DNA from: Minisyncoccota bacterium
GTDB taxonomy: Bacteria > Patescibacteriota > Minisyncoccia > Phycocordibacterales > UBA9973
Assembly (NCBI GenBank): GCA_041659845.1
Contig: JBAZXM010000002.1
Location: 4-64,003 of the forward strand
Reading direction: 5' to 3'
DNA length: 64,000 nucleotides
The number at the start of each line of letters is the position of its first letter. Positions within the stretch are counted from its first letter, which is position 1. The notes beneath the pieces are model-generated. The model was not told the origin of the DNA, made no database searches, and saw only the letters and a program-made list of their open reading frames with translations. The translations under genes and the position numbers were made by a program. This document shows, piece after piece, positions 6,870 to 30,638 of the stretch.

Positions 6870-8633
6870 ATGCAATCTTTGGAAATCAGATCACGATTTT
6901 TAAAATTTTTCGAAAAACGCGGACATGCGATTATTCCCTCGGCATCACTGGTTCCCGAGAATGATCCTTCTGTGCTTTTTAACACTGCGGGTATGCAGCC
7001 TCTTGTTCCATATCTTTTGGGTACGAAGCATCCGATGGGTGCTCGCTTAGCGGATGTACAGAAATGCGTACGCACAGGTGACCTCGATGATATTGGGGAT
7101 AATCGCCACTTTTCTTTTTTTGAAATGCTTGGAAATTGGTCGCTTGGAGATTATTTCAAAGAAGATACTATTAAATGGAGTTATAATTTTTTAACAAATG
7201 GAGACGATAAAAAAGAAGGAGATAAGGGATTAGGTCTCGATGTGAAGCGTTTATATTTTACAATTTTCGAAGGTGATGAAAATGCGCCTTTCGACCAAGA
7301 AGCAAAAGATTTGTGGATGAGTTTGGGTATTCCAGAACATCGCATTTATCCGCTTCCCGCAGAAGATAATTGGTGGAGCCCCGGAGATAACGGACCTTGT
7401 GGTCCTTGTAGCGAAATGTTTTATGACATGAGTGGAGATGTTGGAGATCTTTCAAAAGAAGCTTTTCTTGATGCTGTAAAAAAAGAAGATGTGATTGAAA
7501 TCTGGAATGATGTCTTTATGGAGTATGAAAAGAAAGATGGAAAAGTAATTGGGAAATTAAAACAAAAAAATGTGGATACTGGTGCGGGACTTGAGCGCAT
7601 CACAGCGGTAATGCAAGGTAATCGTACTGCATACGACACTGATATTTTTAAGTCAATTTTCGGGAAGATTAATGAATTTACTTTAAGTAAAGATGAAAAG
7701 GCTAAGCGTATTGTTGCTGACCATGTCCGCACCAGTGTATTTATGATTGCTGATGGTGTTGTTCCAGCAAATACTGATCGAGGATATATTCTACGCCGAT
7801 TGCTTCGCCGTGCGGTCAGATATGCTGATCAGCTTGGGATGAAGCACAGCTCGCTTTTTTGGATTGCGCAAACTGTAATTGAAAAATATAAAGATACGTA
7901 TTCAAATCTAGAATCTGAATCTGAAAAAATAAAGTCTGAAATTGATAAAGAAGAAAGTAAATTCCGTCAGACACTGGAAAAAGGTATGAAAGAGTTTGAA
8001 AAAGGTATTGACCCATTTACTCTTGCGACGACCTATGGCTTTCCGATTGAGCTCACTCTTGAAATTGCGAAAGAAAAAGGGATGGAGATAAATCTCGACG
8101 ATTTTTACACAAAGATGACAGAACATCAAAATCTTTCTCGTACCGCGTCCGCAGGAATGTTTAAAGGCGGATTAGCGAATCATAATGAAAAGACCATACG
8201 ATTACATACTGCACACCACCTCTTGCTTGCAGCATTACAGAAAGTGCTTGGTCGGAGCGTCAAACAGCGGGGGAGTAATATCACTGAAGAGCGCTTGCGT
8301 ATCGACTTTTCTTTTGAAAGAAAGATGACCGATGAAGAAAAAAAACAGGTGGAAGAGATTGTGAATGAAAAAATTCAAGAAGGATTGAATGTAATACGAA
8401 AGGAAATGCCGAAAGAAGAAGCTGAGAAACTGGGTGCCGAGATGGAATTCGGCGCAAAGTACGCAGACACTGTTTCCGTCTATTTTATTGAAGAAAAAAA
8501 TGGCAGCCCATTCTCAAAAGAATTTTGCGGTGGTCCACATGTCACCAATACTCACGAACTCGGTCAGTTTAAAATCCAAAAAGAAGAAGCCGTGGCGCAA
8601 GGAGTGCGAAGAATCAAAGCTATATTGTTATAA
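6870..8633 (+). CDS. alaS: alanyl-tRNA synthetase, short form (catalytic plus editing-like HxxxH segment, no long C-terminal domain)
   Basis: N-terminus RFLKFFEKRGHAIIPSASLVPENDPSVLFNTAGMQPLVPYLLG is the AlaRS signature. HTAHHLLLAALQKVLG..ITEERLRIDFSF is an editing/Zn-type motif. 587 aa, against about 870 for the canonical enzyme. Confidence 0.8.
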   Translation: MQSLEIRSRFLKFFEKRGHAIIPSASLVPENDPSVLFNTAGMQPLVPYLLGTKHPMGARLADVQKCVRTGDLDDIGDNRHFSFFEMLGNWSLGDYFKEDTIKWSYNFLTNGDDKKEGDKGLGLDVKRLYFTIFEGDENAPFDQEAKDLWMSLGIPEHRIYPLPAEDNWWSPGDNGPCGPCSEMFYDMSGDVGDLSKEAFLDAVKKEDVIEIWNDVFMEYEKKDGKVIGKLKQKNVDTGAGLERITAVMQGNRTAYDTDIFKSIFGKINEFTLSKDEKAKRIVADHVRTSVFMIADGVVPANTDRGYILRRLLRRAVRYADQLGMKHSSLFWIAQTVIEKYKDTYSNLESESEKIKSEIDKEESKFRQTLEKGMKEFEKGIDPFTLATTYGFPIELTLEIAKEKGMEINLDDFYTKMTEHQNLSRTASAGMFKGGLANHNEKTIRLHTAHHLLLAALQKVLGRSVKQRGSNITEERLRIDFSFERKMTDEEKKQVEEIVNEKIQEGLNVIRKEMPKEEAEKLGAEMEFGAKYADTVSVYFIEEKNGSPFSKEFCGGPHVTNTHELGQFKIQKEEAVAQGVRRIKAILL

Positions 8634-9039: not shown

Positions 9040-10236
9040 ATGTATATTATGTCTCTCTTTTCATCATTTTTAAAAAAGAAAAAAGAAATTGTCGCGATTT
9101 TTGATATCGGTAGCGGGAGTGTCGGTGGCGCAATAATTGAGATTGATCACACAGGCAAAGTGCCGCGGTCAAAAATTCTCTACACTACACGCGCGCAGAT
9201 TGTTCTTCAGATGAATCTCAATTTTGAGCAATTTCTATCTTCTATGCTTCGTTCACTCGCAGAAGTTACAGAAGACATTGAGAAAAAGGCTCTCGGAGCT
9301 CCTGATCGAGTACATTGCTTTCTTGCATCGCCATGGTATGGGTCACAGACGCGTGTTGTGACTTATTCGAAAAACACAGATTTTATCGTAACGGAAAAAA
9401 TCCTGAATAATTTGATGGAAAAAGAAATTAAGGCTTTTGAGCAAGATGAACTTAAAAAGTATACCGGTCTCGGTACTCACGCCCGTATTATCGAGCATCA
9501 AAATATTAAAGTCTCTATGAATGGGTATATGACCGCATCTCCTGTCGGTAAAAAAGCACGCAGTCTCGAGCTTGTTCTTTTTGTCAGTATGAGTCCGGAA
9601 AATGTTCTTCGCGCTATTGAAAAAAGTATTAAAAATAAATTCTCAATATCTAAGATCAGATTTTCTTCATTTATCTTCGCCTCATTCATTGTTGCGCGTG
9701 ACGCATTCATCGGGCAGAAAAATTTCCTTTTGCTCGATATCGGCGGGGAAATCACAGATGTTGCAATTGTGAAGAATGAAGTCATTGTCGAATCACTCTC
9801 TTTTCCATTGGGGAAAAACTTTCTGATTCGCCGAATTGCTTCACTTTTAAATGTTACTCCGGCAAATGCGCTACCATTGCTTAAACTATACATTTCAAGC
9901 CAACTCGAGGAGACGGTCATGCTCAAGTTCTCCGGTACATTGCAAAAAGCCAGGATTGAGTGGTTGACGCATTTCCAGAATGCCCTAGCTGCAGTTTCAA
10001 GCGATTTATATCTTCCAGACAATATCTTTATGACGGTTGATTCTGACGTGGCTTCTTGGTTTTCCGATTCAATCAAAAAGGAGGAGTATAATCAATACAC
10101 ACTCACGGAAAGGCAGTTTAATGTTATAGTATTAGAAGAGAGTCCGCTCGGGGACGATGTGGATTTTGCCCCAGGGGCAGAGAGAGATCAATTTCTTATG
10201 ATCGAAGCGATTTGTGCCGTTAAACTTTCAAATTAA
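9040..10236 (+). CDS. actin-like ATPase fold protein (FtsA/PilM-like)
   Basis: N-terminal IVAIFDIGSGSVGGAIIE phosphate-1-like motif, and ..LLLDIGGEITDVAIV.. phosphate-2-like motif. The family assignment is tentative. Confidence 0.4.
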   Translation: MYIMSLFSSFLKKKKEIVAIFDIGSGSVGGAIIEIDHTGKVPRSKILYTTRAQIVLQMNLNFEQFLSSMLRSLAEVTEDIEKKALGAPDRVHCFLASPWYGSQTRVVTYSKNTDFIVTEKILNNLMEKEIKAFEQDELKKYTGLGTHARIIEHQNIKVSMNGYMTASPVGKKARSLELVLFVSMSPENVLRAIEKSIKNKFSISKIRFSSFIFASFIVARDAFIGQKNFLLLDIGGEITDVAIVKNEVIVESLSFPLGKNFLIRRIASLLNVTPANALPLLKLYISSQLEETVMLKFSGTLQKARIEWLTHFQNALAAVSSDLYLPDNIFMTVDSDVASWFSDSIKKEEYNQYTLTERQFNVIVLEESPLGDDVDFAPGAERDQFLMIEAICAVKLSN

Positions 10237-10246
10237 TTTTTTAATC

Positions 10247-11566
10247 ATGCCTAAAAAAAATTTTCTTCAAGACATTGTTAGAATGTCATCTCCAGATAAA
10301 GGATCACCTCCTTCTTCGAAGCTGCCTAACAAAATCACTGATAACCCGATTGAATCGTTGGTGATTATTTCTCCACCTGTTTCTATCCACAAAGAAAATA
10401 TGATAGATGAACCACCTCGCCAACATCGCGCAATATGGGGACTCGCAATATTCTCAATAATATCTTTATTTTTTGCACTCTCTTTTCTTTTTTCTGGTGC
10501 TAAAGTCACTGTCGTGCCTAAAATTGAAACATTTTTACTCGATGATACATTTTCTGCCAAGCGTAATCCAAGTGAAGGCGATATTCCATTCCAGTTAATG
10601 GCACTAAAAGGTGAAGAGACGAAAAATATCACCGGTACCGGAACAAAGGCTGTAGAGCAAAAAGCAACGGGCCGCGTAGTCATTTATAATTCATACAGTT
10701 CATCACCACAAAGGCTTTTGATAAATACTCGCCTTGAATCACCAATAGGGAAAATTTATAAAACTCTTACTCCGACAACAGTCCCGGGTATGACCATAAA
10801 AGATGGGCAGCAGGTTCCTGGATCAGTCGAAGTGACCATAGTTGCCGATGCCTCAGGAGAGGAATATAACAGTCCAATGACTGATTTTACTATCGTTGGG
10901 TTTAAGGGAAATCCTAAATATCAGAAATTCTATGCTCGTTCTAAAACTGACATCACTGGTGGATTCAAGGGAACTATCGGTATTATTGACGATAAGGACA
11001 AATCTGATGCCGCTATCGAACTCAAACAAACTCTCAAGGATAAATTGATTAAACAGGCGCGTGCTCAGATCCCAGATGGCTTCATTCTATACGATGAGGC
11101 GACTATTCTCAGTCCTTCGAATTCTGAGCCGACTATCGGGAAGATGGCAAATGATGGCCTGGTTCCAATGACTGAAGAAGCTACCCTTTACGCATTTTTA
11201 TTACCCGAACAAGCACTGACAAAAAAAATCGCTGAAAACGGAATCAGTCAATTTGATGATAGTTCTGTTTACATAGAGGAACTGAAAAATATCACTTTCG
11301 TTCTTGATAATAAAGAAACCATTGTTCCAGAGGATGCATCTCAAATCTCGTTCAAGCTTTCAAGCGATGTGCATGTCATATGGAATGTCGACCAAGATAA
11401 GCTTACAAATGATCTAGTGGGTACGTATAAAAAAGATTTCCAGAAAATATTATCGAATTATAAAAATATCGACTCGGCTGAAGTCACCGTCCGTCCGTTC
11501 TGGAAACGAACAATTCCCGATGATAAGAAAAAGATCACGATTATAATCAAAACGAGCAAGAATTAA
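10247..11566 (+). CDS. hypothetical membrane-anchored protein (Pro-rich N-terminus, one TM, large extracytoplasmic domain)
   Basis: TM helix AIWGLAIFSIISLFFALSFLFSGA. The start is chosen at M12 to avoid overlap. Confidence 0.45.
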   Translation: MPKKNFLQDIVRMSSPDKGSPPSSKLPNKITDNPIESLVIISPPVSIHKENMIDEPPRQHRAIWGLAIFSIISLFFALSFLFSGAKVTVVPKIETFLLDDTFSAKRNPSEGDIPFQLMALKGEETKNITGTGTKAVEQKATGRVVIYNSYSSSPQRLLINTRLESPIGKIYKTLTPTTVPGMTIKDGQQVPGSVEVTIVADASGEEYNSPMTDFTIVGFKGNPKYQKFYARSKTDITGGFKGTIGIIDDKDKSDAAIELKQTLKDKLIKQARAQIPDGFILYDEATILSPSNSEPTIGKMANDGLVPMTEEATLYAFLLPEQALTKKIAENGISQFDDSSVYIEELKNITFVLDNKETIVPEDASQISFKLSSDVHVIWNVDQDKLTNDLVGTYKKDFQKILSNYKNIDSAEVTVRPFWKRTIPDDKKKITIIIKTSKN

Positions 11567-20896: not shown

Positions 20897-20899
20897 AAA

Positions 20900-20941
20900 C
20901 CTCATCTACAATCTACGCCATGGCGTAGATTGTAGATGAGG
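20900..20941. repeat. perfect 42-bp palindrome CCTCATCTACAATCTACGCCATGGCGTAGATTGTAGATGAGG (family member 2)
   Basis: Direct read. It shares the outer CATCTACAA..TTGTAGATG arms and the CGCCATGGCG core with the 15807-15842 element. It lies immediately after the dnaJ stop. Confidence 0.9.
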
Positions 20942-21017
20942 TTGGTTGTATTTATAAAAAGTGATACGATAGGAGGGTTATTAAATAATATAAGTTGGAC
21001 GCATTTATTTTTATTTT

Positions 21018-24000
21018 ATGCATCATGTATATATTTTTAGCCATCGATTAAAAAAATATTTCTCCACTAAATTGCCAGCGTTTTTGCTGGCCTTTTTATT
21101 TATTTTTTCACCGGTAGCTCAAATTTTTGCAGAAGAAGTATCACAATCTTCAACTGCAGAAAATATTGAAACACAAGCACCAGAAATTAATCAAACTGAA
21201 ACAACACCAACACCTGAACCCGAACCTCAAAGCCAAGAATCTAACTCAAGCCAATCTTTATCTCAAGCACCAATCTCAAGTTCAACTGCAAATACAAATC
21301 TACCGCCATCAAGTATTAAAGTATTGCTTCCGGAGGCAGACCAAACGACAGGTGCTCTTGTATACAGTTATCCAATAGCTATTCCGTCAGGACGAAATGG
21401 TTTACAACCAGATTTAGGACTTACATATAATAGCCAAAACATGCAGGAGGGTAGTATTTTTGGATCAGGATGGTCGGTAAATATTCCGCAAATTGAACGG
21501 ATTAATCGAAAAGGTTCTGAAAAGCTATATACAGAAAATTATTTCTCCTCCTCACTTGATAGTGAGCTGGTGGAAGTATTCTCAAATGTTTATGCTCCAA
21601 AGGTTGAGAATGGTAGTTTTAATAAATATGAATTTTCTAACAATATTTGGACAGTAACGGATAAAAAAGGAACTGTATATAAATTCGGTCAGACTGCAGT
21701 TTCCCGACAAGATGATCCAAACGATAGTACTAAAGTCTACACATGGACGCTTGAAGAGATAAGAGACACAAACGATAATTATATAAAATATGAATACTAT
21801 AAAGATGATGGACAGATTTATCCTTCTCGCATAATTTACACTGGGAATGGAATAACTGATGGCATTTTTGAAATCAATTTCCTTCGCCAATCGCGAACAG
21901 ATATTGCTCCGATAAACAAGACAGGCTTCAGTGTAAGTACTAATTATCGTGTTTACGAAGTTGATATAAAGACAAGCGGAATATTAACTCATAAATATGA
22001 AATTAGTTACACAACAGGAGATAACGGTGTCCGCTCGCTAGTAAATAGTATTACTGAATCAGGTATCAACCAGGCGACAGGTATAATAACTACACTTCCT
22101 CCGACATCTTTTTCTTATCAAACTAGTACTGCCGGATGGACGCAAGATACTTCCTTAACCGTTCCTGTGACATTTGTTTGGCCGTCTGGTCAAGATGCTG
22201 CAGTCCGTATTCTTGATGTAAATTCTGACGGCTTGCAAGATCTTGTCGTTTCGAGTGGATCATCAGGTGTGAAATCTGTGTATTTAAATAATGGCGGTGG
22301 CTGGGTAGAAGATACTTCTTGGGTAATACCGGAATATATTGTTGATGCCGGGAATAGTGATACAGGTTTTCGATTTTTGGATATAAACGGAGATAATTTG
22401 CCAGATATTATTTTATCAAGATTATGGGATTATAACGGCGATAATACCAAGCATGTGTATATCAATAATGGCAGTGGTTGGGTAGAAGATTTCACTTGGA
22501 CAATACCGGTATATTTTTCAATCCCAGGAGGCGTTGATCCAGGTTCTCGAATTGCCGATATAAATGGTGATGGTCTTCCTGATTTATTAGTTTCAGAAAG
22601 GATGAGTGATACTCAAAAAGTCTATATCAATAATGGTACTAATTGGGTATATGATCAAGCGTGGGTTATTCCGATGTATTTTACTAATATATTTTCGCGT
22701 GACGAAGGTACTATCCTTACTGATATTAACGGCGATGGGCAAGCAGATATTCTTTGGTCGAATAATGCCTTGTCGATGAAGTCTGTTTACATTAATACCG
22801 GCACAGGGTGGACTGAAGATACTACATGGGGGACTATTCCGGAATATTTTCTTGACGGGTCTCGTAAAGACAGAGGGGTACGATTCGCAGATATAAATAG
22901 TGATGGACTGATGGATATTTTGATTTCATATCTCGTGCAAGATAATCAATATGGTCGTACAGAAGAAAAGCATGTTTACATAAATACTGGCAAGGGCTGG
23001 ACGGAAAATACTTCAATCACCATCCCAGTTTTCTTTGTTGATCCTGGCAATGGCGACACTGGCGCTCGTATCAGCGATAATAAGGGTTCAAATTTGTCAG
23101 GTATTATTTTATCAAAACACTTACAGCCTAATTTAGACCAAAAGGAAGCATACAATAAAAATGGTAAAAGGTCAGATCTTCTTTCGCGTATTACATATTC
23201 TACAGGAGGAACAACTGACATCACATATAAATCATCAACACAATATAAAGATGGAAGTACAATATCAAACCCTAATCTTCCATTCGCATTTGATACGGTG
23301 CATCAATTATCTACAAATGATAATAATGGAAATATTTCAACCACTACATACGATTACGAAAATGGTAAGTATTATTTCAATACGCCTTTTGATAGAAAGT
23401 TCGCAGGGTTCGGCGCAATTACAAAAATAGATTCTGTAGGAAATACTGTAAAAACATATTTTCACCAAGGGGATGCCACCAATTCTTCACAAGGAGAATA
23501 CGATGATCATTCTTCAAAAATTGGCAAACCATATCTTATCGAATTCGCTGATGCATCGGGGAATATTTATTCTCGCACTATTAATAAATGGGAAAAGACT
23601 AGCTTAGGAACTGGTCGTGATTTTATTTACCAAAGTCAAAAGATTGATATGGTTTATGACGGCAATGCAACACACAAAGATATTGCCACGGAGTATACCT
23701 ACGATACAGTAAATGGTAACCTTCTCACCCAAGTAAATAGAGGGGAAGTAAATGCTTTACTGAACGGTACATTTACAGATACTGGTAGTGATATGAGCAC
23801 TGCAACTTATACATATAACCAAAATACATCAACAAATGTTTATGCTCCTCAAAATATTATTGTAACGGACGGTCTTTCAAATAAAATTCAAGAATCAAAA
23901 TATTATTATGATGCTTTGGCATATGGGTCAATTAGTAAAGGTAATCCCACAAAAGTAGAGAATTGGAAATCCGGCACATCATATATCTCAACAGAAAAGA

Positions 24001-27000
24001 CATACAATAATTATGGTCTCGTGACTTCTGATAAAGATGCTCGCGGCAAGATTACTTCATATACTTATGATTCGAATAATCTTTACCCGATAACAATTAC
24101 TAACCCACTCAACCACACTATTCAATACACACATGATTCTAGTACGGGCAAAGTCCTTACTACGACAGACCAAAACGGTGTCGTATATATAAATACTTAT
24201 GACGGTTTAGGGAGAATCAAGGAAGAAAAAATTCCGGGCACTATCGCTCCGTATTCTCCGGTTCTAAAAACAGACTATGTTTATACAGACACCTCCGGAG
24301 CAGTCGCAATTCAAAAAACCGAGTATCTCGATGCCTCAAATACCGTTGATACTTATCAGTATTTTGATGGATTGAATCGTCTTACACAAGAAAGGACGGA
24401 AGCGGAAATGGCGGGCGATTTTAATGTTCGTGATATTATTTACAACAATCTCGGCCTTCTTGAAAAAGAATCGTTAAAATATCAAAGTACTGGAAGTGTA
24501 AAGACCACACCGACAACTATACAAGCTCTTTATACCTCGAATACCTACGATCTGTTACAGCGCGTTTTGACTGCAACTAATGCATCCGGTACGACAAGCA
24601 ATATATATGACGGTTGGAAGGTATCTATTACTGATGCAAAAGGTAATGTAAAAAATTTCTACAAAGATGCTTACGGCAATCTCATAAAAGTCGAAGAAAA
24701 AAACGGAACAAGTACATATACGACACTCTATGAATGGAATCTCAACCAGAAACTTACAAAGATTACTGATGCTTTGGGGAATATTCGTAATTTCACCTAC
24801 GATGCTCTGGGTCAGCGTTTAACTGCGGAAGATCTTCACACTCCTACGGATACTACATTCGGCACGTGGACATATACATATGATGACGCTGGTAATATCA
24901 CTCAGACAACGAATCCAAGAGGCCAGATCATTACTTCTACTTATGATGACCTCAATCGAATTCTTACTGAAAGTGTCACTGGCGCACCTCTCGTGGGCGC
25001 TATATATGTGTACGATGTTTGTCTAAATGGTATAGGGAAACTGTGCAATGCTCTGGTGAAAGAAGGATCGACAAACACAGCGTATGCCTATGATTCTCGA
25101 GGGGGAGTCGCACTTGAAACGAAAACAATCAGTGCAATTGCATATCCTACTTCATATACTTACAATCACCAAAATAATATTCTCTCAATCACAACTCCCG
25201 ATTTGGCGGTCACGCAGTACACCTACAATCAAGGCGGGCTATTGGAAAAAATTGAAGTCAAAGAAGCCGGCGGCGCATTTGCAAATATCATTTCAAATTT
25301 TGATTATAATCCGATGGGTCAGATTACTACGCAGAATTTTGCAAACGGTGTTATTACGACCAATACTTATGATTCAGCAAATTTGTACCGCCTAACTCGT
25401 CGTCTAACTCAGAATTCCGCTCTGGAGAAATTACAAGATCTCAATTATACATATGACAATGTCGGAAATATTACCCAGATTATAGATTCATCCAATACCA
25501 ACGGAGCCAAGACTTCAGTATTTGCATATGATGATTTGTATCGTCTTATTTCTACTACAGTTACAAATTCAGCAAACGCTCAAAATTACGCGCAGGCCTA
25601 CACATACGATGCTCTAGGGAATATTCTCACTGGGCCGGCGGGGGCGTATCTTTATCAAGGTAGTACTGGAACAAGTAAAGCTAATTCGCATGCTGTGACT
25701 TCTATAAACGGCGCTGTAATTACTTATGACAATGATGGTAATGTATTAACGAGTGGTGCGCTTACTAACACATGGAATTATCGTGATCAATTAAGTCAGA
25801 CGATAAAACAAACGCCAAGCGTGGTCATAAGTGTTCCAGAAGTGCTAGTATCAGGAATGTCTTTGAGTGCTGTGCCTGTAAAAAACAGTCTTTTAAATAC
25901 TAGAACGTTTGAATCTGCTTCAACTGCCAAAATAATCCAGCCAATTAATGTTTCTGTTCCAATCACAATGAATTATTACTATGACCACACAGGTAGCCGA
26001 GTCTGGTATAAGGTGGATGCAGTAAGTACATATTATCCAAACAAGTTTTATAATACGAGTGGTACGAAAAAAACTAAGAAAATTTTTGCCGGCAATACTC
26101 TCGTCGCGAGCATTGAAACTGTAATCTCAGGGATGACGCCCGTATTAGAAATCAAAACACTGAGTTCTTTGACCAGTTTGGGCGGTTCTTCTGTCGGTGG
26201 TGTTACTACTCCAACAAAGACTATTACCCTGTATTATGTCCACACAGATCATGTTTTGGGTTCAAGCGTCATATCCAATCAATCAGGTACAAAAGTAGAA
26301 CTTCTAGACTACTATCCTTTCGGTCAAATCCGCCTTGATGAGAAAACTGGGAGTTTCAGCGAGCAAAGGAAATTCGGGGGACATATCTACGACCAAGAAA
26401 CAGATTTGAACTATTTGGGCGCAAGGTATTATAATGGAACATGGGGGAGATTTGCATCACAGGATTCCATGTTTTGGAGTCTACCAGATAGTTACCTGCT
26501 TGATCCTCAACAGCAAAATAGCTATAGTTATGCGAGAAATAATCCTGTGGTTTATGTTGATCCAGATGGGAATAGTGCACAATTACCTGCGGGACTCATA
26601 AGTGTCTATCAGTCAATTAAGCAAATATTTACCAATGCTTTTGGTGGACAAAAAAATAATAGTACTCCAGCCCAAGTTACAACTCCAACCCCTAAAGCTC
26701 AACAGGCACAAACTTCAAAAGTAGGACCAGGAGATTATCCGGGTGATGGACATATAAAAAGTGATTATATCAAAATAACTTTTGATCCTGGAGCAGATAA
26801 TTCCCTAAACCAAAAGGCTGTAAATGGTTATGAACAAATATTCGAACAAGCAAGTCAAAGAGGTATAACTTCTGTTAATTTTTCTTCTACGGCTAGATTA
26901 GATAAAGAAAAATTTTCTTGGCATAATTATGGTCTTGCTGGAGATATAAATATTGTTAATGGAATTCATGTTTCAAAAGATAATTCTTATGCAAAAACAT

Positions 27001-27149
27001 TACAGAATGTAATAGATAAAACTCCTGGAGTAAGGGAAAATTTTGGCCCCTTCATAATTAATCATAGTAGTAAAGTGTACTCAATGGAGCAATATGATAC
27101 TTTAAGCAAGGGACATCAAGATCATGTTCATACTTCGTTTAATAAGTAG
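21018..27149 (+). CDS. giant secreted polymorphic toxin combining TcB-like and TcC/RHS-like parts with a C-terminal LAS/M15-type zinc-peptidase toxin domain
   Basis: In order along the protein: a signal peptide; a T/P/S/Q-rich linker; an SpvB-like domain (GALVYSYPIAIPSGRNGLQPDLGLTYNSQN..GSGWSVNIPQIERINRKG); at least five DxNxDGxxD FG-GAP/VCBS loops (LDVNSDGLQDLV, DINGDNLPDII, ADINGDGLPDLL, TDINGDGQADIL, ADINSDGLMDIL); many YD repeats (YTYDALGN, YDGLGR, YDDLNR..); and the RHS core (LYYVHTDHVLGSS..YYPFGQIR..RKFGGHIYDQETDLNYLGARYYNGTWGRFASQDS..YVDPDGN). The tip carries SWHNYGLAGD ... DHVH. Confidence 0.85.
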   Translation: MHHVYIFSHRLKKYFSTKLPAFLLAFLFIFSPVAQIFAEEVSQSSTAENIETQAPEINQTETTPTPEPEPQSQESNSSQSLSQAPISSSTANTNLPPSSIKVLLPEADQTTGALVYSYPIAIPSGRNGLQPDLGLTYNSQNMQEGSIFGSGWSVNIPQIERINRKGSEKLYTENYFSSSLDSELVEVFSNVYAPKVENGSFNKYEFSNNIWTVTDKKGTVYKFGQTAVSRQDDPNDSTKVYTWTLEEIRDTNDNYIKYEYYKDDGQIYPSRIIYTGNGITDGIFEINFLRQSRTDIAPINKTGFSVSTNYRVYEVDIKTSGILTHKYEISYTTGDNGVRSLVNSITESGINQATGIITTLPPTSFSYQTSTAGWTQDTSLTVPVTFVWPSGQDAAVRILDVNSDGLQDLVVSSGSSGVKSVYLNNGGGWVEDTSWVIPEYIVDAGNSDTGFRFLDINGDNLPDIILSRLWDYNGDNTKHVYINNGSGWVEDFTWTIPVYFSIPGGVDPGSRIADINGDGLPDLLVSERMSDTQKVYINNGTNWVYDQAWVIPMYFTNIFSRDEGTILTDINGDGQADILWSNNALSMKSVYINTGTGWTEDTTWGTIPEYFLDGSRKDRGVRFADINSDGLMDILISYLVQDNQYGRTEEKHVYINTGKGWTENTSITIPVFFVDPGNGDTGARISDNKGSNLSGIILSKHLQPNLDQKEAYNKNGKRSDLLSRITYSTGGTTDITYKSSTQYKDGSTISNPNLPFAFDTVHQLSTNDNNGNISTTTYDYENGKYYFNTPFDRKFAGFGAITKIDSVGNTVKTYFHQGDATNSSQGEYDDHSSKIGKPYLIEFADASGNIYSRTINKWEKTSLGTGRDFIYQSQKIDMVYDGNATHKDIATEYTYDTVNGNLLTQVNRGEVNALLNGTFTDTGSDMSTATYTYNQNTSTNVYAPQNIIVTDGLSNKIQESKYYYDALAYGSISKGNPTKVENWKSGTSYISTEKTYNNYGLVTSDKDARGKITSYTYDSNNLYPITITNPLNHTIQYTHDSSTGKVLTTTDQNGVVYINTYDGLGRIKEEKIPGTIAPYSPVLKTDYVYTDTSGAVAIQKTEYLDASNTVDTYQYFDGLNRLTQERTEAEMAGDFNVRDIIYNNLGLLEKESLKYQSTGSVKTTPTTIQALYTSNTYDLLQRVLTATNASGTTSNIYDGWKVSITDAKGNVKNFYKDAYGNLIKVEEKNGTSTYTTLYEWNLNQKLTKITDALGNIRNFTYDALGQRLTAEDLHTPTDTTFGTWTYTYDDAGNITQTTNPRGQIITSTYDDLNRILTESVTGAPLVGAIYVYDVCLNGIGKLCNALVKEGSTNTAYAYDSRGGVALETKTISAIAYPTSYTYNHQNNILSITTPDLAVTQYTYNQGGLLEKIEVKEAGGAFANIISNFDYNPMGQITTQNFANGVITTNTYDSANLYRLTRRLTQNSALEKLQDLNYTYDNVGNITQIIDSSNTNGAKTSVFAYDDLYRLISTTVTNSANAQNYAQAYTYDALGNILTGPAGAYLYQGSTGTSKANSHAVTSINGAVITYDNDGNVLTSGALTNTWNYRDQLSQTIKQTPSVVISVPEVLVSGMSLSAVPVKNSLLNTRTFESASTAKIIQPINVSVPITMNYYYDHTGSRVWYKVDAVSTYYPNKFYNTSGTKKTKKIFAGNTLVASIETVISGMTPVLEIKTLSSLTSLGGSSVGGVTTPTKTITLYYVHTDHVLGSSVISNQSGTKVELLDYYPFGQIRLDEKTGSFSEQRKFGGHIYDQETDLNYLGARYYNGTWGRFASQDSMFWSLPDSYLLDPQQQNSYSYARNNPVVYVDPDGNSAQLPAGLISVYQSIKQIFTNAFGGQKNNSTPAQVTTPTPKAQQAQTSKVGPGDYPGDGHIKSDYIKITFDPGADNSLNQKAVNGYEQIFEQASQRGITSVNFSSTARLDKEKFSWHNYGLAGDINIVNGIHVSKDNSYAKTLQNVIDKTPGVRENFGPFIINHSSKVYSMEQYDTLSKGHQDHVHTSFNK
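26574..27149 (+). other. C-terminal toxin domain of the RHS protein, predicted LAS-family (M15/VanY/L-Ala-D-Glu peptidase-like) zinc peptidase
   Basis: It starts right after the DPDGN autoproteolysis motif. An SxHxxGxAxD motif (KFSWHNYGLAGD) and a C-terminal DxxH plus H (HQDHVH) match the His-Asp-His zinc ligands of LAS enzymes. Confidence 0.6.
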
Positions 27150-27158
27150 ATAAAAAAT

Positions 27159-27593
27159 ATGAAAAATATATTAAAAATTTTGTTTCTTATATTAATAATA
27201 CTGGGAATATATATCATTACTAAACCAAAGCTATCATTTGGTACTTTTACAAATATCCCGGAAAATTTAAAAGATTCTGGCTGTACTTTTTATTGGACAG
27301 AACAAGATGTAAGCAATAAAAATTATGCACTAGTCTCTACTTTTGGAAATACAGAAAATTTAGAACCCAATGCTATTATTTTTATAAATAATAAATTAGA
27401 AGAATTAAATACAAAAGACAGTGATTATCTTTATAAATATAAATATGAAAATAGTAAATATGCTATCAATATAAAAGTTATTAGAAGTACTCTTAACGGG
27501 AATGAAAGTTATTATGAAGAGGGCATTTTAACAGCCAAAGACAATAAGGGAAACAGCATATTACGTAATATTATAGGATATTGCGGAGTTTAA
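27159..27593 (+). CDS. candidate immunity protein for the peptidase toxin (small exported/membrane-anchored protein)
   Basis: 144 aa with a signal anchor (MKNILKILFLILIILGIYIITKP). It starts 10 nt after the toxin stop and is very AT-rich. Confidence 0.45.
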   Translation: MKNILKILFLILIILGIYIITKPKLSFGTFTNIPENLKDSGCTFYWTEQDVSNKNYALVSTFGNTENLEPNAIIFINNKLEELNTKDSDYLYKYKYENSKYAINIKVIRSTLNGNESYYEEGILTAKDNKGNSILRNIIGYCGV

Positions 27594-27638
27594 ATATTAA
27601 TTTAACCGAGTATAAATTGAGCCAGTTGTTTCTAGATT

Positions 27639-28256
27639 ATGTATAAAATAGGAAAGAAAATAGGAATAAATGATAAAAATATATACAGCACAGTTTTTAT
27701 TGTAATTGTTTTTATTACTCTATCAACGTTTTTCTTAAAAAGTTCTTCTAAAAATAATCAACCTATAGAAATTATTAATAACAATCAATTTAAAGAATGG
27801 AATAATTTTTTTGTTAAAAATACAGAAATTTTTACAACCAGTGATTGGTTTACATATGAAGGTAAAAATATAGGCGAATTTTCAATCGCCCTTCCAAATG
27901 ATTGGAAATTAGAAGGAAGTGTTTTTACAAATAACAATGATCAAAAAGTTGCAGAATTTTCTCCAGGTCTGGTTCAATTAAAAAATAATCAGAGTTGTTT
28001 TGATGTTGAATGGAGTAATGAAGATGGAGAGAGTGAAATGATCTCCCTAAATGATATTGAGATAGGGTCATTAAAAGGCAAACTACTTGTTGAAAAAGCG
28101 CCCGCATGGGAGGAAAGTGCTAATAAATATTTATATCCATATTTTTATTGTTTATCAAATGGACATAACGCTTTTGTAATGACTTTTTATGAATGGAATT
28201 TGGAATTAACTGATACAGAGTTACATAATAAAATTCTTAGTACATTGAGGTTCTAA
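27639..28256 (+). CDS. hypothetical membrane-anchored protein (possible orphan immunity gene)
   Basis: 205 aa with an N-terminal TM (IYSTVFIVIVFITLSTFFL). AT-rich. Confidence 0.4.
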   Translation: MYKIGKKIGINDKNIYSTVFIVIVFITLSTFFLKSSSKNNQPIEIINNNQFKEWNNFFVKNTEIFTTSDWFTYEGKNIGEFSIALPNDWKLEGSVFTNNNDQKVAEFSPGLVQLKNNQSCFDVEWSNEDGESEMISLNDIEIGSLKGKLLVEKAPAWEESANKYLYPYFYCLSNGHNAFVMTFYEWNLELTDTELHNKILSTLRF

Positions 28257-28289
28257 AATAGATCGCTGCCGTTAAACAATTTTTCTTAT

Positions 28290-29252
28290 ATGATCGCGAA
28301 TATTAAAATGAAAAAGTCAAAAATTATTAAATCAGCAATTATAGTCGTATTAATAGTTTTAGTTCTTGCTAGTTATTATTTACATCAAATAAACATTATC
28401 AATAATATTGATCAAAAAGTTCATTCTATGAATGGTGGAACTTTTAGGTATGGCATAGAAAATCTAAATAACGAAGAATTTTTGGAGAATATGACGGATG
28501 GTGGTGGGGGGCTTGTTGGATATTTTAGAGGTAGTGAGTTGATAAAAATGGTCGAACGGGTTGGTCTTTCCTATGGCACCCAAAATTTTCAGTTTTATTA
28601 TGAAAATGAAAAATTAATCTTTGCCTACCATGAACATAGATTTTTTAATCATAATGAAGATGGCTCAAAAGATTATGACCACCCGGGATTTCTTTTGGCC
28701 ACCAAATATTATTTCAAGGATGGAAAGTTATTTAAAAAAGAATTTCACAGAGAAAAGAATTTCCCAACAGGTTATGACATTACTATAGAATTTTTATTAG
28801 CACAATCAGAAAGAAATTCTAAAATTATTTCAGAATTCAAAAACAAGGAGTATTACGGAGAATGGATGGTATACAAATCTATGTCTCCTCAAAATATGGT
28901 GACTTTCGAAGAAGAGCCCTTAACTAAAGAACAAATTAATGAATTTTCAAATTCTAAAATTATTTTAGAGAAAGAAAAAGCGATTTTATCAGGAAATATT
29001 TGCAATAATCCAGAATATGTTAAGGTTGAAGAAACTCCTTTTGATTATTTTCTAAATAATTATAAAGTTGTTATTAATGAAGAAACTGGAAGTACAACCG
29101 CTTTAGATAAAAAATCTTTAGGCATAAACTCGGAATTTTCTGATATTGTAGAAATAAAATGTAATAACGATTACTATACTCTCTTAATCACTAACTCAAA
29201 AGAATCATTGCTTGAGTATAAAAATACTTTTTTCTTTTTAACAAAAAACTGA
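28290..29252 (+). CDS. hypothetical membrane-anchored protein (possible orphan immunity gene)
   Basis: 320 aa with an N-terminal TM (IIKSAIIVVLIVLVLASYYL). AT-rich. Confidence 0.4.
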   Translation: MIANIKMKKSKIIKSAIIVVLIVLVLASYYLHQINIINNIDQKVHSMNGGTFRYGIENLNNEEFLENMTDGGGGLVGYFRGSELIKMVERVGLSYGTQNFQFYYENEKLIFAYHEHRFFNHNEDGSKDYDHPGFLLATKYYFKDGKLFKKEFHREKNFPTGYDITIEFLLAQSERNSKIISEFKNKEYYGEWMVYKSMSPQNMVTFEEEPLTKEQINEFSNSKIILEKEKAILSGNICNNPEYVKVEETPFDYFLNNYKVVINEETGSTTALDKKSLGINSEFSDIVEIKCNNDYYTLLITNSKESLLEYKNTFFFLTKN

Positions 29253-29336: not shown

Positions 29337-30638
29337 ATGAATAAAAACACAATCGCTATTATCAGTGCTCTTGGAATAATTATTCTCACTGGAGTAGTTG
29401 GATATTTTCTTCTTACTTCAAAAACACAGCCACAGCCCATTAAGGTTATAAGTTCTTTTGAGGAATGCGCACAAGCCGGCTATCCGATTTTAGAGAGCTA
29501 TCCCGAACAATGCCAAACTCCCGACGGGCAATCGTTTACAAAAGGACTCACTCCTCAAGAAGCAGTTTTGGGAAATCAGGTCACACTTCGCGTAAATGAG
29601 CAGGTAAAATTTGATGACGGCTTAGTAATAACGCTCACGGAAATCAATGACTCGCGCTGCAAACAAGGCGTGCAGTGCATATGGCAGGGTGAGCTTTCAT
29701 CTACATTCATTATTCTTGGTGGAAATGTTTCTGAGTTTAAAGAAATACAATTAGGAACAGTAACCGCTAAAAGCGCAACACAAAACGGGTACACGTTTAC
29801 ATTAAAAGAGGCGACTGAAATCAATGCGACGATCACGGTAACTAAGAAGGCGACTATTTCTCCGCCCACTCCAACACCAACCCCAATTCCACCAGTTGCG
29901 TGCACCGCTGATGCAAAACAATGTTCTGATGGATCGTATGTGGGAAGAACAGGACCAAAATGCGAATTCACAGCATGTCCGGGGGAAAACTCCGCTCAAG
30001 TATCTTTACGAGAGGGGCAACGTGAGGGACCATTGCTCGTTCAAAAAATTTATCCTACATATATCACCGGGCAAGTCTATAGAGAATATCCGGTAGCAAC
30101 CGATCAGGGCTCGCCGATAACAATGTACATCGGAGATAGTGCTTCAAATGGATGTACGGTAACACTGACGCTTATCAGAATCCAAAATGGAATAGCCGTG
30201 TTCACGAAAACAACAGATTATAATCGTCCGTGTCCGATATGTCTTGCTGAAAATACTTTTATCGATACGCCCGCAGGGGAGATAGCAGTCCAGAATCTTA
30301 CGGCAGGAATGGAAGTTTGGACAGTAAATAATTCTGGGATAAAAGTTTCAGCAAAGATTCTTAAAACCGGAAGAACATTGGTGCCAGAAACTCATCGCGT
30401 AATGCATTTTGTTTTGAGTGATAACCGCGAGCTTTTTGTCTCACCCGGGCATCCGACAAGTGATGGCCGACTCGCCGGCACTGTTTTGGCTGGAGACACG
30501 CTCGATGGTGCAAAAGTACTCAGCGCTATACTCGTCCCTTATGAAGACGAATATACCTACGATATACTTCCAGCTGGAGAAACTGGACAGTACTGGTCTA
30601 ACGGAATTCTCATGAGTAGTACGTTAATAACTAGCTAG
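29337..30638 (+). CDS. secreted Cys-rich protein with a C-terminal Hint (hedgehog/intein-like, BIL-type) autoprocessing domain
   Basis: A signal anchor, Cys-containing modules and a PPTPTPTPIPP linker. The protein then runs CLAENTFIDTPAGEIAVQNL..GMEVWT..TGRTLVPETHRVMHF..SPGHPTSDGRLAGTVLAGDTL (Hint block A Cys, block B TxxH) and ends at the Hint domain. Confidence 0.6.
   Translation: MNKNTIAIISALGIIILTGVVGYFLLTSKTQPQPIKVISSFEECAQAGYPILESYPEQCQTPDGQSFTKGLTPQEAVLGNQVTLRVNEQVKFDDGLVITLTEINDSRCKQGVQCIWQGELSSTFIILGGNVSEFKEIQLGTVTAKSATQNGYTFTLKEATEINATITVTKKATISPPTPTPTPIPPVACTADAKQCSDGSYVGRTGPKCEFTACPGENSAQVSLREGQREGPLLVQKIYPTYITGQVYREYPVATDQGSPITMYIGDSASNGCTVTLTLIRIQNGIAVFTKTTDYNRPCPICLAENTFIDTPAGEIAVQNLTAGMEVWTVNNSGIKVSAKILKTGRTLVPETHRVMHFVLSDNRELFVSPGHPTSDGRLAGTVLAGDTLDGAKVLSAILVPYEDEYTYDILPAGETGQYWSNGILMSSTLITS

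Follow-up and report, generated by a model that had tools for sequence, protein, structure and literature searches.

Described systems related to the locus

Polymorphic RHS toxins of the TcdB/TcaC class are built from a signal peptide, an SpvB domain, an integrin-like propeller, RHS repeats and a variable toxin, with an immunity gene attached (Zhang, de Souza, Anantharaman, Iyer and Aravind 2012, PMC3482391). Wall-directed tips such as Tox-LD-peptidase are listed for the class, and swappable tips with linked partner genes are presented as the hallmark of systems that discriminate kin or competitors; within the passages compared, no VanY or LAS-type tip and no 144-aa immunity family is described, and Patescibacteria are absent from the phyletic list. 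Surveyed Tc toxins are overwhelmingly proteobacterial, and natural tcB-tcC fusions are known among them (e.g. B. pseudomallei ABA52082.1; PMC7861908). M15- or MepA-like peptidase effectors are delivered by the T6SS (PMC12135965, PMC6833914). LAS (MEROPS clan MD) peptidases used for comparison were MepA (M74), VanY, VanXY and LdcB (M15B), the Zn DD-carboxypeptidase (M15A) and the Ply500/T5 endolysins (M15C), the latter being delivered by phage. The secreted RHS protein WapA is not known to have a TcB-like N-terminal half of SpvB plus propeller, and the characterised WapA tips are nucleases.

The locus described here encodes a 2043-aa protein which probably belongs to the TcdB/TcaC (BC-fusion) class of polymorphic RHS toxins and is exported by Sec, with a LAS-fold zinc peptidase as cargo and an anchored, extracytoplasmic candidate immunity protein as partner. 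The weapon type is known and the example fairly ordinary; the warhead family is not yet catalogued. The whole defining architecture of the TcdB/TcaC class and a linked gene in the immunity position are shared (PMC3482391). WapA of the monoderms Bacillus subtilis and Streptococcus suis is likewise a Sec-exported RHS shell whose polymorphic C-terminal toxin is followed by an immunity gene, and it serves in interbacterial competition without T6SS (PMC12704120).

Gene and genomic setting

Analysis of the genome covered the window, i.e. the whole 64-kb stretch of DNA. ORF analysis gave a single unbroken 2043-aa ORF at 21018..27149 (+), and a record identical in sequence is held at NCBI as 'MAG: FG-GAP-like repeat-containing protein [Candidatus Paceibacterota bacterium]'. 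A preliminary description of this DNA had proposed one intact frame, the largest gene of the window and a CPR-like lineage; the frame was not split into separate ORFs, the runner-up ORF (an MmeI-type restriction-modification enzyme) measured 906 aa, and the lineage agreed with the NCBI label and with the nearest loci, which belong to Candidatus Nomurabacteria MAGs. At least 664 homologues were found at E <= 1e-10 among 8000 candidates scored, and the family is very abundant among Patescibacteria MAGs. Peptidoglycan genes of the producer in the window comprised an S11 DD-carboxypeptidase and a Glycos_transf_4 (MraY/WecA-type) enzyme. A terminator-like hairpin (Table 1) sets the toxin unit apart from dnaK-dnaJ upstream.

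Table 1. Features of the toxin locus (window coordinates; aa, residues of the 2043-aa protein)
Feature	Coordinates	Strand	Basis or remark
Terminator-like perfect hairpin, 20 bp	20899..20942	+	20 pairs, 9 G-C; just 3' of dnaJ
Sec-type signal peptide, aa 1-37	21018..21128	+	Hydropathy and homologue N-termini; predicted cleavage after QIFA
Low-complexity S/E/T/P/Q-rich linker, aa 38-100	21129..21317	+	Composition
SpvB / TcB N-terminal domain, aa 101-370	21318..22127	+	Pfam SpvB aa 110-266, E 3e-15
FG-GAP (integrin-like) beta-propeller, six-blade, aa 371-720	22128..23177	+	Pfam, motif and profile alignment
RHS/YD-repeat shell, aa 721-1764	23178..26309	+	Pfam RHS_repeat, NCBIfam YD_repeat, AF2 model
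Rhs-associated core, aspartyl autoprotease, aa 1765-1852	26310..26573	+	NCBIfam Rhs_assc_core / TIGR03696 aa 1765-1851, E 4.6e-16
Tip linker, non-conserved, aa 1853-1900	26574..26717	+	Alignments
Predicted toxin domain, LAS / Hedgehog-DD-peptidase-fold zinc peptidase, aa 1901-2043	26718..27149	+	
Candidate cognate immunity protein, 144 aa	27159..27593	+	Starts 9 nt past toxin stop
AT-rich ORF, 205 aa, N-terminal membrane anchor	27639..28256	+	
AT-rich ORF, 320 aa, N-terminal membrane anchor	28290..29252	+	GC 0.28

Architecture of the 2043-aa protein

Signal peptide, SpvB domain and propeller, all N-terminal to the RHS repeats, follow the order of the TcdB/TcaC class. The signal peptide has a basic n-region (R10, K12, K13, K18) and a hydrophobic core LPAFLLAFLFIFSPV (Kyte-Doolittle 2.3), followed by QIFA-EE (hyphen, predicted cleavage site). 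A comparable N-terminal hydrophobic window was present in 53 of the first 60 homologues taken, and the pattern ...LLAFLF...(V/F)xA-(E/Q/D) was common to all seven homologue N-termini displayed. The low-complexity linker that follows may serve as a spacer. The SpvB domain was 54-58% identical to those of the close homologues P0002, P0003 and P0037, and the SpvB structure 6p0x was matched by the family profile. Pfam matches in the propeller were FG-GAP_3 (E 8.5e-22) and FG-GAP (E 1.8e-14); with strict DxNxDGxxD calcium loops at aa 400, 514, 569 and 625, a relaxed loop (DINGDNLPD, aa 455) and a degenerate sixth near aa 686 (SDNKGSNLSG), the propeller has six blades, all but the last of them with an intact Ca-loop motif.

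The repeat shell was matched by Pfam RHS_repeat (E 6.7e-26, six stretches) and NCBIfam YD_repeat_2x (E 9e-16). An AF2 model of aa 721-1900, folded with the N-terminal half left out, consisted of beta-hairpins nearly throughout (pLDDT 79), with low confidence over the final ~55 core residues; by Foldseek it lay nearest to TcdB2-TccC3 (TMq 0.71-0.76), with lower values for T6SS Rhs proteins (0.43-0.55) and teneurins (0.25-0.40). In the core, the autoprotease motif reads P1843xxxxD1848xxG1851, with YVDPDGN at aa 1846-1852. D1816, P1843, D1848 and G1851 were invariant in alignments of 32 and 39 homologues, and conservation was lost sharply right after G1851 in both. With motif and cleavage register taken from PMC7861908, D1816 and D1848 are predicted to be catalytic and the tip to be cut between N1852 and S1853.

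The domain succession of the preliminary description (signal peptide, SpvB, at least five calcium loops, a long YD/RHS array, a core ending in YVDPDGN) was thus recovered, the loop count on admitting the relaxed and degenerate forms, and the aspartyl-protease residues it had proposed to check near DPDGN are the invariant pair named above; the tip beyond the autoproteolysis site is likewise present, at a length of 191 rather than 190 aa.

The C-terminal tip is a LAS-superfamily domain

The AF2 model of the tip (pLDDT 93.5) shows the LAS / Hedgehog-DD-peptidase alpha/beta sandwich fold, and the zinc-ligand signature of the superfamily, H-x(3-6)-D plus H-x-H, is present; the predicted ligands are H1969, D1976 and H2038. 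The succession S-x-H-x6-D ... E-N-x-G-P ... H-x-x-H-x-H was kept across 82 domains, with both residues of H1969-x6-D1976 conserved at 100% and H2036-x-H2038, which aligned to AHIH of Sonic hedgehog, at 94-95%; further conserved positions are S1967, E2007-N-x-G-P, H2033 and H2036. The E-N-x-G-P element and the H-x-x-H-x-H C-terminus are extra to the LAS peptidases used for comparison, and delivery as an RHS tip differs from that by phage or T6SS.

Among 36 tip members, sub-threshold matches were obtained to Peptidase_M15_4 in 19 and, less often, to M15_3, VanY, Extensin-like_C, HH_signal and M74; no member reached significance in Pfam (best E-values ~1e-4), and no curated family (M15_4, M15_3, VanY, M74 and others) was reached at gathering score, the top Pfam match of the tip in the window being Peptidase_M15_4 at 18-19 bits (cut-off 25). 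Compared with 96 homologue tips, the sole weak matches were two tips with Pfam VanY/M15_4 domains. VanY-type enzymes carry an Arg/Gln substrate-binding motif ahead of the SxHxxGxAxD box; this motif is apparently not conserved in the tip (P0037 alignment). The tip is a member of the LAS superfamily (Pfam clan Peptidase_MD) that belongs to no catalogued family, and its most likely targets are the peptide stems or cross-links of peptidoglycan. The identity of this cargo and the downstream candidate immunity gene are additions to the preliminary description.

Tip and candidate immunity gene as a probable exchangeable module

Ten sister proteins carried ten different Pfam toxin domains at the tip (Tox-REase-7, HNH, Tox-GHH, EndoU, barnase-type RNase, RNase A, Ntox21, Ntox44, NlpC/P60 and CHAP); among 96 tips from the 120 homologues listed, the same tip recurred in P0003 only. 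Conservation is higher in the tip than in the shell: tip identity was ~60% to both P0003 and P0121, the shell reaching 48% (P0003) and 35% (P0121). In the comparison with flanking core genes that had been suggested, GC was 0.315 in the tip and 0.246 in the immunity gene, as against 0.387 in the toxin shell and 0.44 in dnaK and dnaJ. AT-richness extends from the tip over the ORFs that follow it, and tip and candidate immunity gene together probably constitute an exchangeable, AT-rich cassette.

The 144-aa protein carries a membrane anchor at its N-terminus as well as a conserved pair of cysteines, Cys42 and the C-terminal Cys142, and had no match to a Pfam or NCBIfam family. A homologue was the next gene after the same tip in five of the six tip-bearing loci, Bacteroidota-like loci included (related loci with the homologue directly 3' of the tip: L001, L002, L005 and L006); the exception was L003/L004, where the gene after the tip is unrelated. 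The homologues directly after the tip were 46-51% identical in two loci of Candidatus Nomurabacteria that show no synteny in the upstream flank. Those of the Bacteroidota-like L005 and L006 were remote (HMM E 3e-13 and 8e-13) and resemble lipoproteins, L005 with a clear LVSC lipobox and L006 starting with MSC and possibly truncated. The co-occurrence is observed at the loci, and the 144-aa protein is probably the cognate immunity protein, its presumed action being neutralisation of the tip. The 205-aa ORF, for which the related loci compared gave no homologue, is possibly an extra or orphan immunity protein; the 320-aa ORF had a weak homologue at the matching relative position in L001 (E 4e-12 and 7e-9).

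That the C-terminal domain is no toxin at all, being instead a self-directed wall remodelling enzyme or a non-catalytic, Hedgehog-like binding or adhesion module on an RHS scaffold, with an unrelated membrane protein encoded downstream, is most improbable: the metal-binding and catalytic signature is complete and invariant or nearly so over the 82 domains, the domain stands directly after an intact Rhs autoproteolytic site where sisters bear bona fide toxins, the pairing of tip and downstream gene recurs in five of the six loci, in different phyla and with differing flanks, and the GC of tip and downstream block is anomalous.

Relation to Tc toxins

The family profile matched the TcdB2-TccC3 fusion at E 5e-57 and, at ~1e-25 to 1e-27 in each case, TcdB1 and YenB over the propeller and TccC2 and YenC2 over the C-terminal shell. 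These matches were collinear, profile positions 338-819 corresponding to residues 340-796 of TcdB1 and 338-801 of YenB, propeller region included, and positions 1378-1788 to residues 207-663 of TccC2/YenC2; together with the Foldseek result they bear out the earlier proposal of a TcB-then-TcC-like fusion. Collinear domains, a cocoon fold and PxxxxDxxG ahead of a hypervariable region are shared with the Tc BC subcomplexes (TcdB2-TccC3, YenB-YenC2), and the domain order is that of the natural tcB-tcC fusions. Identity to the Tc BC subcomplex is only ~15%, however, and the part before the tip, with 1850 aa, is shorter than TcB plus TcC (~2150 aa).

A genuine BC subunit of a Tc (ABC) toxin would dock on a TcA pentamer encoded elsewhere and inject eukaryotic (or archaeal) host cells. 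For such a subunit speak the closest solved structures, which by profile and fold are TcdB2-TccC3, YenB/YenC and TcdB1/TccC2, the presence of the propeller that serves as TcA-docking gate, and the 64-kb extent of the genome inspected. At the level of the locus, however, no TcA was visible, as already noted in the preliminary description: besides the toxin no window ORF exceeded 906 aa, hence none was of TcA size, and TcA-type Pfam families were absent from the window and from the flanks of five distinct related loci, as were T6SS and T7SS genes. Unlike a Tc BC subcomplex, the protein has a Sec signal peptide, conserved in the family, and a linked candidate immunity gene, and its cargo is by modelled fold a wall peptidase, not an ADP-ribosyltransferase or similar. 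The Tc BC trait of a eukaryote-directed cargo without immunity gene fails here, the cargo having a peptidoglycan-peptidase fold and the downstream partner co-varying with it; this co-variation and the extracytoplasmic anchoring of the partner agree with an antibacterial polymorphic toxin. Given also the proteobacterial bias of the surveyed Tc toxins, a Tc BC subunit is considered very unlikely.

Proposed mode of action and biological meaning

For the preferred reading, a polymorphic toxin of the TcdB/TcaC class, the following course is proposed. The signal peptide, judged by sequence and family conservation, would carry the 2043-aa chain over the single membrane. SpvB domain, six-blade propeller and RHS repeats would then fold into a closed cocoon of BC type that encloses the C-terminal tip; similarity to the BC-type fold is seen in the model, and encapsulation of the tip is suggested by Tc and Rhs structures. 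The D1816/D1848 protease, its residues being invariant, would cut after N1852 and leave a 21-kDa fragment free inside the shell. On contact with a neighbour, the cargo may be released into the neighbour's cell wall and hydrolyse peptidoglycan. Since peptidoglycan is situated on the outer side of the cytoplasmic membrane, the cargo would require no T6SS and no TcA-like translocon, at least where the target is monoderm. The producer cell and its kin, which have peptidoglycan genes of their own, would be shielded by the 144-aa anchored protein.

A different use of the same parts would be attack on a host: an episymbiotic CPR cell would use the caged peptidase to breach the peptidoglycan of the bacterium to which it is attached, at the point of contact, and so gain nutrients or an anchorage, and the downstream protein would shield only the wall of the symbiont. 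The Paceibacterota lineage with Candidatus Nomurabacteria as closest relatives, the abundance of the family in Patescibacteria MAGs and a cargo that by its modelled fold would act on walls are consistent with this, as is the episymbiotic or parasitic life of cultivated members of the group (cf. the abstract of PMC13622651). Against it stand the exchange of tips on the shell (nucleases, RNases and peptidases, with partner genes linked to them), which is typical of kin or competitor discrimination (PMC3482391), and the occurrence of the tip-plus-immunity pair in Bacteroidota-like RHS loci, which are not those of episymbionts; a host-attack factor is considered unlikely.

Sister shells with nuclease tips, which need the cytoplasm, indicate that the family probably has a membrane-translocation route, one that the course proposed for the TcdB/TcaC-class toxin does not explain. 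The preliminary description had assigned the protein to contact-dependent antagonism or host interaction, and the wall-peptidase-type cargo and the candidate immunity gene support such a role: their combination makes antagonism between bacteria, or against the wall of a host cell, likely, in preference to a Tc function of the insecticidal type.

Domain organization of the toxin

The toxin gene is one unbroken ORF, not a set of split frames, and as the preliminary description had claimed it is by far the largest gene in the window, the next-largest ORF encoding an MmeI-type restriction-modification enzyme of 906 aa. The identical protein already has an entry, from a contig of 71,885 bp, under the title 'MAG: FG-GAP-like repeat-containing protein [Candidatus Paceibacterota bacterium]'; Candidatus Paceibacterota is the phylum Minisyncoccota in current NCBI taxonomy, and this label bears out the CPR-like lineage proposed earlier. 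Each domain named in that description was recovered by profile searches (table), the signal peptide being backed by its sequence pattern: the N-terminus consists of a basic n-region and a hydrophobic core (LPAFLLAFLFIFSPV) followed by QIFA/EE. A hydrophobic window of the same kind was found in 53 of the first 60 homologues, and the pattern '...LLAFLF...xFA/E' was common to all seven homologue N-termini displayed, so that export by Sec is a well-founded inference from sequence. Four strict DxNxDGxxD calcium loops, a relaxed one and a degenerate sixth were counted in the propeller (at least five had been claimed), which gives six blades. The motif YVDPDGN occupies aa 1846–1852 and leaves a tip of 191 aa, close to the 190 aa first given.

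Features of the window and of the toxin (aa, residues of the toxin; E, profile search)
Feature	Position (nt)	Residues (aa)	Strand	Size	Remarks
ORF	1042–2439		+	465 aa	no Pfam match at E 1e-5
Alanyl-tRNA synthetase	6870–8633		+	587 aa	stops at tRNA_SAD domain
ORF	9040–10236		+	398 aa	no Pfam match at E 1e-5
ORF	10214–11566		+	450 aa	no Pfam match at E 1e-5
Inverted repeat	20899–20942		+	20 bp, 4-nt loop	perfect; directly after dnaJ, between dnaJ and toxin gene
Toxin gene	21018–27149		+	2043 aa	
SpvB		110–266			E 3e-15
FG-GAP_3 and FG-GAP					E 8.5e-22 and 1.8e-14
RHS_repeat					six stretches, E 6.7e-26
YD_repeat_2x					matched by profile search
Insertion in RHS shell	~25839–25934	1608–1639			pLDDT <50
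Insertion in RHS shell	~26136–26201	1707–1728			pLDDT <50
Rhs_assc_core		1765–1851			E 4.6e-16
Predicted LAS-type domain	26718–27149	1901–2043	+		
Partner gene	27159–27593		+	144 aa	candidate immunity protein
ORF	27639–28256		+	205 aa	AT-rich, N-terminal membrane anchor
ORF	28290–29252		+	320 aa	AT-rich, N-terminal membrane anchor
Membrane-anchored protein	29337–30638		+	433 aa	Pro/Thr-rich linker, C-terminal Hint_2-like segment
MmeI-type restriction-modification enzyme	55145–57865		+	906 aa	complete; all five MmeI Pfam domains, E 1e-21 to 1e-91

Scaffold and autoprotease core

A profile built from 32 full-length homologues was searched against PDB sequences and matched the engineered TcdB2-TccC3 fusion (E 5e-57); profile positions 338–819 align to YenB residues 338–801 and TcdB1 residues 340–796, and positions 1378–1788 to residues 207–663 of TccC2 and YenC2. 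This collinear match to TcB members and then to TcC members identifies the toxin, at the level of sequence, as a natural TcB-then-TcC fusion. The proposed BC-like shell was modelled with AlphaFold2 (aa 721–1900, 39-sequence alignment, pLDDT 79) and consists almost entirely of beta-hairpins; in Foldseek, TcdB2-TccC3 was the best match (TMq 0.71–0.76), followed by T6SS Rhs effectors (0.43–0.55) and teneurins (0.25–0.40). Two low-pLDDT insertions in the modelled shell are possibly disordered loops that line the cocoon or lead out of it.

R1803, Y1804, F1812, S1814, D1816, P1843, D1848 and G1851 are invariant in both family alignments, and conservation drops away directly past G1851. The aspartyl-protease residues expected near DPDGN are accordingly present, D1816 and D1848 being invariant and the PxxxxDxxG motif intact. 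Mutation of this motif abolishes cleavage of TcC, whose cleavage register has D-x-D-G-R at P-5 to P-1 (PMC7861908); applied to the toxin, the register predicts autocleavage between N1852 and S1853, with a fragment of 20.9 kDa and pI 8.7.

The tip as a putative LAS-superfamily peptidase

Peptidase_M15_4, below threshold, was the sole Pfam/NCBIfam match of the tip, and a word-index homology search of the database gave no match to it. When 1.84 billion cluster representatives were searched exhaustively with HMMER, 118 relatives were obtained, in all of which the domain is C-terminal; nine have at least 900 aa, and several are RHS proteins of about 2000–2270 aa. Many of the shorter relatives start with remnants of the Rhs core, an NNPxxxxDPxG-like motif being present in 37 of 117.

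In 82 aligned domains the signature S1967-x-H1969-x4-A-x-D1976-I...Q1996...E2007-N-x-G-P...H2033-x-x-H2036-x-H2038-x-S is invariant or nearly so. The zinc signature of the LAS group (lysostaphin / D-Ala-D-Ala carboxypeptidase / Sonic hedgehog; MEROPS clan MD) is H-x6-D plus H-x-H, and the segments 'SrHnggrAvDi' and 'HiHiSv' of the tip family profile align to the matching segments of Sonic hedgehog. Sub-threshold Pfam matches among 36 aligned members were to Peptidase_M15_4 (19), Peptidase_M15_3 (7), Extensin-like_C (7), VanY (3), HH_signal (1) and Peptidase_M74 (1), families which belong to one Pfam clan; none of the 36 reached a Pfam gathering score. As an independent check, the window tip was compared with 96 tips taken from the 120 full-length homologues listed. 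One true homologue was found (the tip of P0003, a homologous toxin; E 1.6e-54), and the only two other, weak matches both carry Pfam VanY/M15_4 domains, one of them aligning at SYHNYGLALD.

These data identify the cargo as a putative LAS-superfamily zinc peptidase, with peptidoglycan peptides as its most probable substrates. Its family is uncatalogued: in the Pfam and NCBIfam libraries searched, it stays below every threshold. Enzymes named in connection with the cargo are VanYB, VanX, Ply500, LysB4, DacB and the T5 and RB49 L-Ala-D-Glu peptidases. VanY-type enzymes have an Arg/Gln motif ahead of the zinc box; this motif was not evident in the tip, whose specificity may therefore differ from that of M15B enzymes; the bond cleaved is not readable from the sequence. 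Two other PDB matches were rejected: exonuclease mut-7 (single-sequence search, E 0.064) was spurious, and MJ0754, the top match of the tip profile, was aligned to a His-tag.

The partner gene and its linkage to the tip

The partner ORF starts 9 nt past the toxin stop codon and encodes a protein with an N-terminal membrane anchor; it belongs to no Pfam or NCBIfam family, and the word-index search returned only the query itself. Four other loci have a homologue directly 3' of the same tip. In the P0003 locus (L001) the next gene encodes a 147-aa homologue (48% identity, E 9e-46), and in that of P0121, a second homologous toxin, a 148-aa homologue occupies the equivalent position, both contigs being Candidatus Nomurabacteria MAGs. 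Upstream, these two loci are flanked by AdoHcyase/AAA_28 and PBP/arginase, whereas the window has dnaK-dnaJ, so that the conservation is a property of the cassette and not of general synteny. A related-locus search with the partner alignment returned only the two Nomurabacteria loci already found, and an HMM built from the three CPR sequences detected the partner directly 3' of the tip in two remote, Bacteroidota-like loci (E 3e-13 and 8e-13), of which L005 has a Por_Secre_tail neighbour and L006 a carrier without Pfam match. The partners in both resemble lipoproteins (a clear LVSC lipobox in L005; in L006 the protein begins MSC and is possibly truncated), and all five partner proteins invariably have Cys42 and a C-terminal G-x-C. 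That an extracytoplasmic, anchored partner tracks the tip across phyla is as expected for immunity to a wall-active toxin, and we infer that the 144-aa protein neutralises the tip. In one tip-bearing locus (L003/L004), that of toxin P0146 (2111 aa, SpvB-RHS scaffold), the place of the Cys-pair partner after the tip is taken by an unrelated protein of 229 aa (10361–11050), possibly an alternative immunity family, and a DUF1176 protein comes next.

Composition and modularity of the cassette

Conservation is higher in the tip than in the scaffold: tip identity to P0003 and P0121 is about 60%, against 48% and 35%, respectively, for the shell. The proposed comparison of GC with flanking core genes gave 0.387 in the shell and 0.315 in the tip versus 0.44 in dnaK and dnaJ. 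The value falls to 0.246 in the partner gene and is 0.27 and 0.28 in the next two ORFs, which makes 26718–29252 a compositionally distinct block. These two ORFs have no family matches; the 320-aa product has a weak homologue (E 4e-12) at the equivalent place in the locus of P0003, the 205-aa product none in the related loci. Both products may be extra or orphan immunity proteins, or may have an accessory role.

Sister proteins with scaffolds 40–49% identical carry as tips Tox-REase-7, NlpC/P60, CHAP, HNH, Ntox44, EndoU, a barnase-type RNase, Ntox21, Tox-GHH with PT-TG, and RNase A, and many bear labels of Patescibacteria, among them Paceibacterota, Ryanbacteria, Doudnabacteria and Uhrbacteria. 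Clustering of tips gave one cluster of 49 members; what these have in common is probably pre-toxin or linker sequence at the regex boundary, so the cluster was not used as a measure of diversity. The 2314-aa scaffold homologue P0011, which has an additional LamG-like segment at its N-terminus and covers 69% of the query at 47% identity, carries the label of an archaeon, Candidatus Methanoperedens nitratireducens; this suggests cross-domain transfer or a binning artefact.

Genomic surroundings

Neither the window nor any related-locus flank showed TcA, T6SS or T7SS components, in keeping with the earlier remark that no TcA-like partner is visible. A tblastn search showed no further, orphan fragments of the Rhs core or of the tip in the window, which thus holds no orphan toxin array; tRNA and Rfam scans of it were empty. 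Housekeeping genes encode AlaRS, CysRS, a class II (D/K/N-type) aminoacyl-tRNA synthetase, DnaB and MnmA. Canonical bacterial AlaRS has about 870 aa; the enzyme here is shorter (table). An S11 DD-carboxypeptidase and a Glycos_transf_4 enzyme are related to peptidoglycan, so that the producer probably has a wall needing protection. For an intrinsic terminator the inverted repeat is very long, and the tail after it is poor in T. The gene of the 433-aa protein comes directly after the AT-rich block and has a normal GC of 0.44; its Hint_2 match (Pfam E 4.5e-6, segment starting 'CLAENTFIDTPAG') is just under the gathering score. Hint domains can act as releasing peptidases in polymorphic toxins, and a tie between this protein and the toxin is possible.

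Discussion

The observation made in the preliminary description is real, and its interpretation as contact-dependent antagonism or host interaction is supported. Architecture, fold similarities, invariant residues, tip-partner linkage and modular composition are shown by the data; in the best-supported mechanism the toxin would be exported by Sec, its BC-type cocoon would fold round the tip, aspartyl autoproteolysis would follow N1852, and the peptidase, set free into a neighbour's wall, would be toxic there, the anchored partner protecting producer and kin. With a substrate outside the cytoplasmic membrane a TcA pore would be unneeded, at least for monoderm targets. The nucleases carried by sister proteins must cross a membrane, so the scaffold is likely to provide for translocation or release by means beyond the steps given here. 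A more far-reaching view is that Sec-exported, TcA-independent BC cocoons are a general delivery device of Patescibacteria with an autonomous opening or translocation mechanism, and that here the uncatalogued LAS peptidase breaches the wall of an episymbiont's host, as a parasitism factor and not a weapon in kin competition; we regard this as improbable, and if true it would be considerably more interesting.

Zhang et al. (PMC3482391) describe this architecture class across many phyla and list wall-directed tips such as Tox-LD-peptidase, and the toxin falls within the class as defined there. Natural tcB-tcC fusions have been noted (PMC7861908), M15- and MepA-like peptidases are known T6SS effectors (PMC12135965, PMC6833914), and WapA proteins are established Sec-exported RHS toxins of monoderm bacteria (PMC12704120). 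Unlike Tc toxins, the toxin described here has no TcA at its locus and carries antibacterial-type cargo with a linked partner gene, for which two reasons it is filed as working partly like a BC cocoon and not as a Tc component. This class of architecture has been on record since 2012, and current understanding is not overturned. What is new is modest: a LAS-fold tip family and a partner family below the thresholds of the Pfam and NCBIfam libraries searched, and a tip-partner cassette common to Patescibacteria and Bacteroidota-like RHS loci. No publication on RHS or BC-fusion toxins of Parcubacteria or Patescibacteria came up in literature searches.

Two sequence families are delineated, the LAS-fold tip (118 cluster representatives) and the small Cys-pair immunity partner. 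They offer a concrete, testable candidate effector-immunity pair for an uncultivated lineage with reduced genomes and poorly understood cell interactions, and suggest that such bacteria put about 6 kb into wall-directed antagonism. The toxin would also be a natural case of a BC-type cocoon working without TcA, and may as such bear on how Rhs cages release their cargo.
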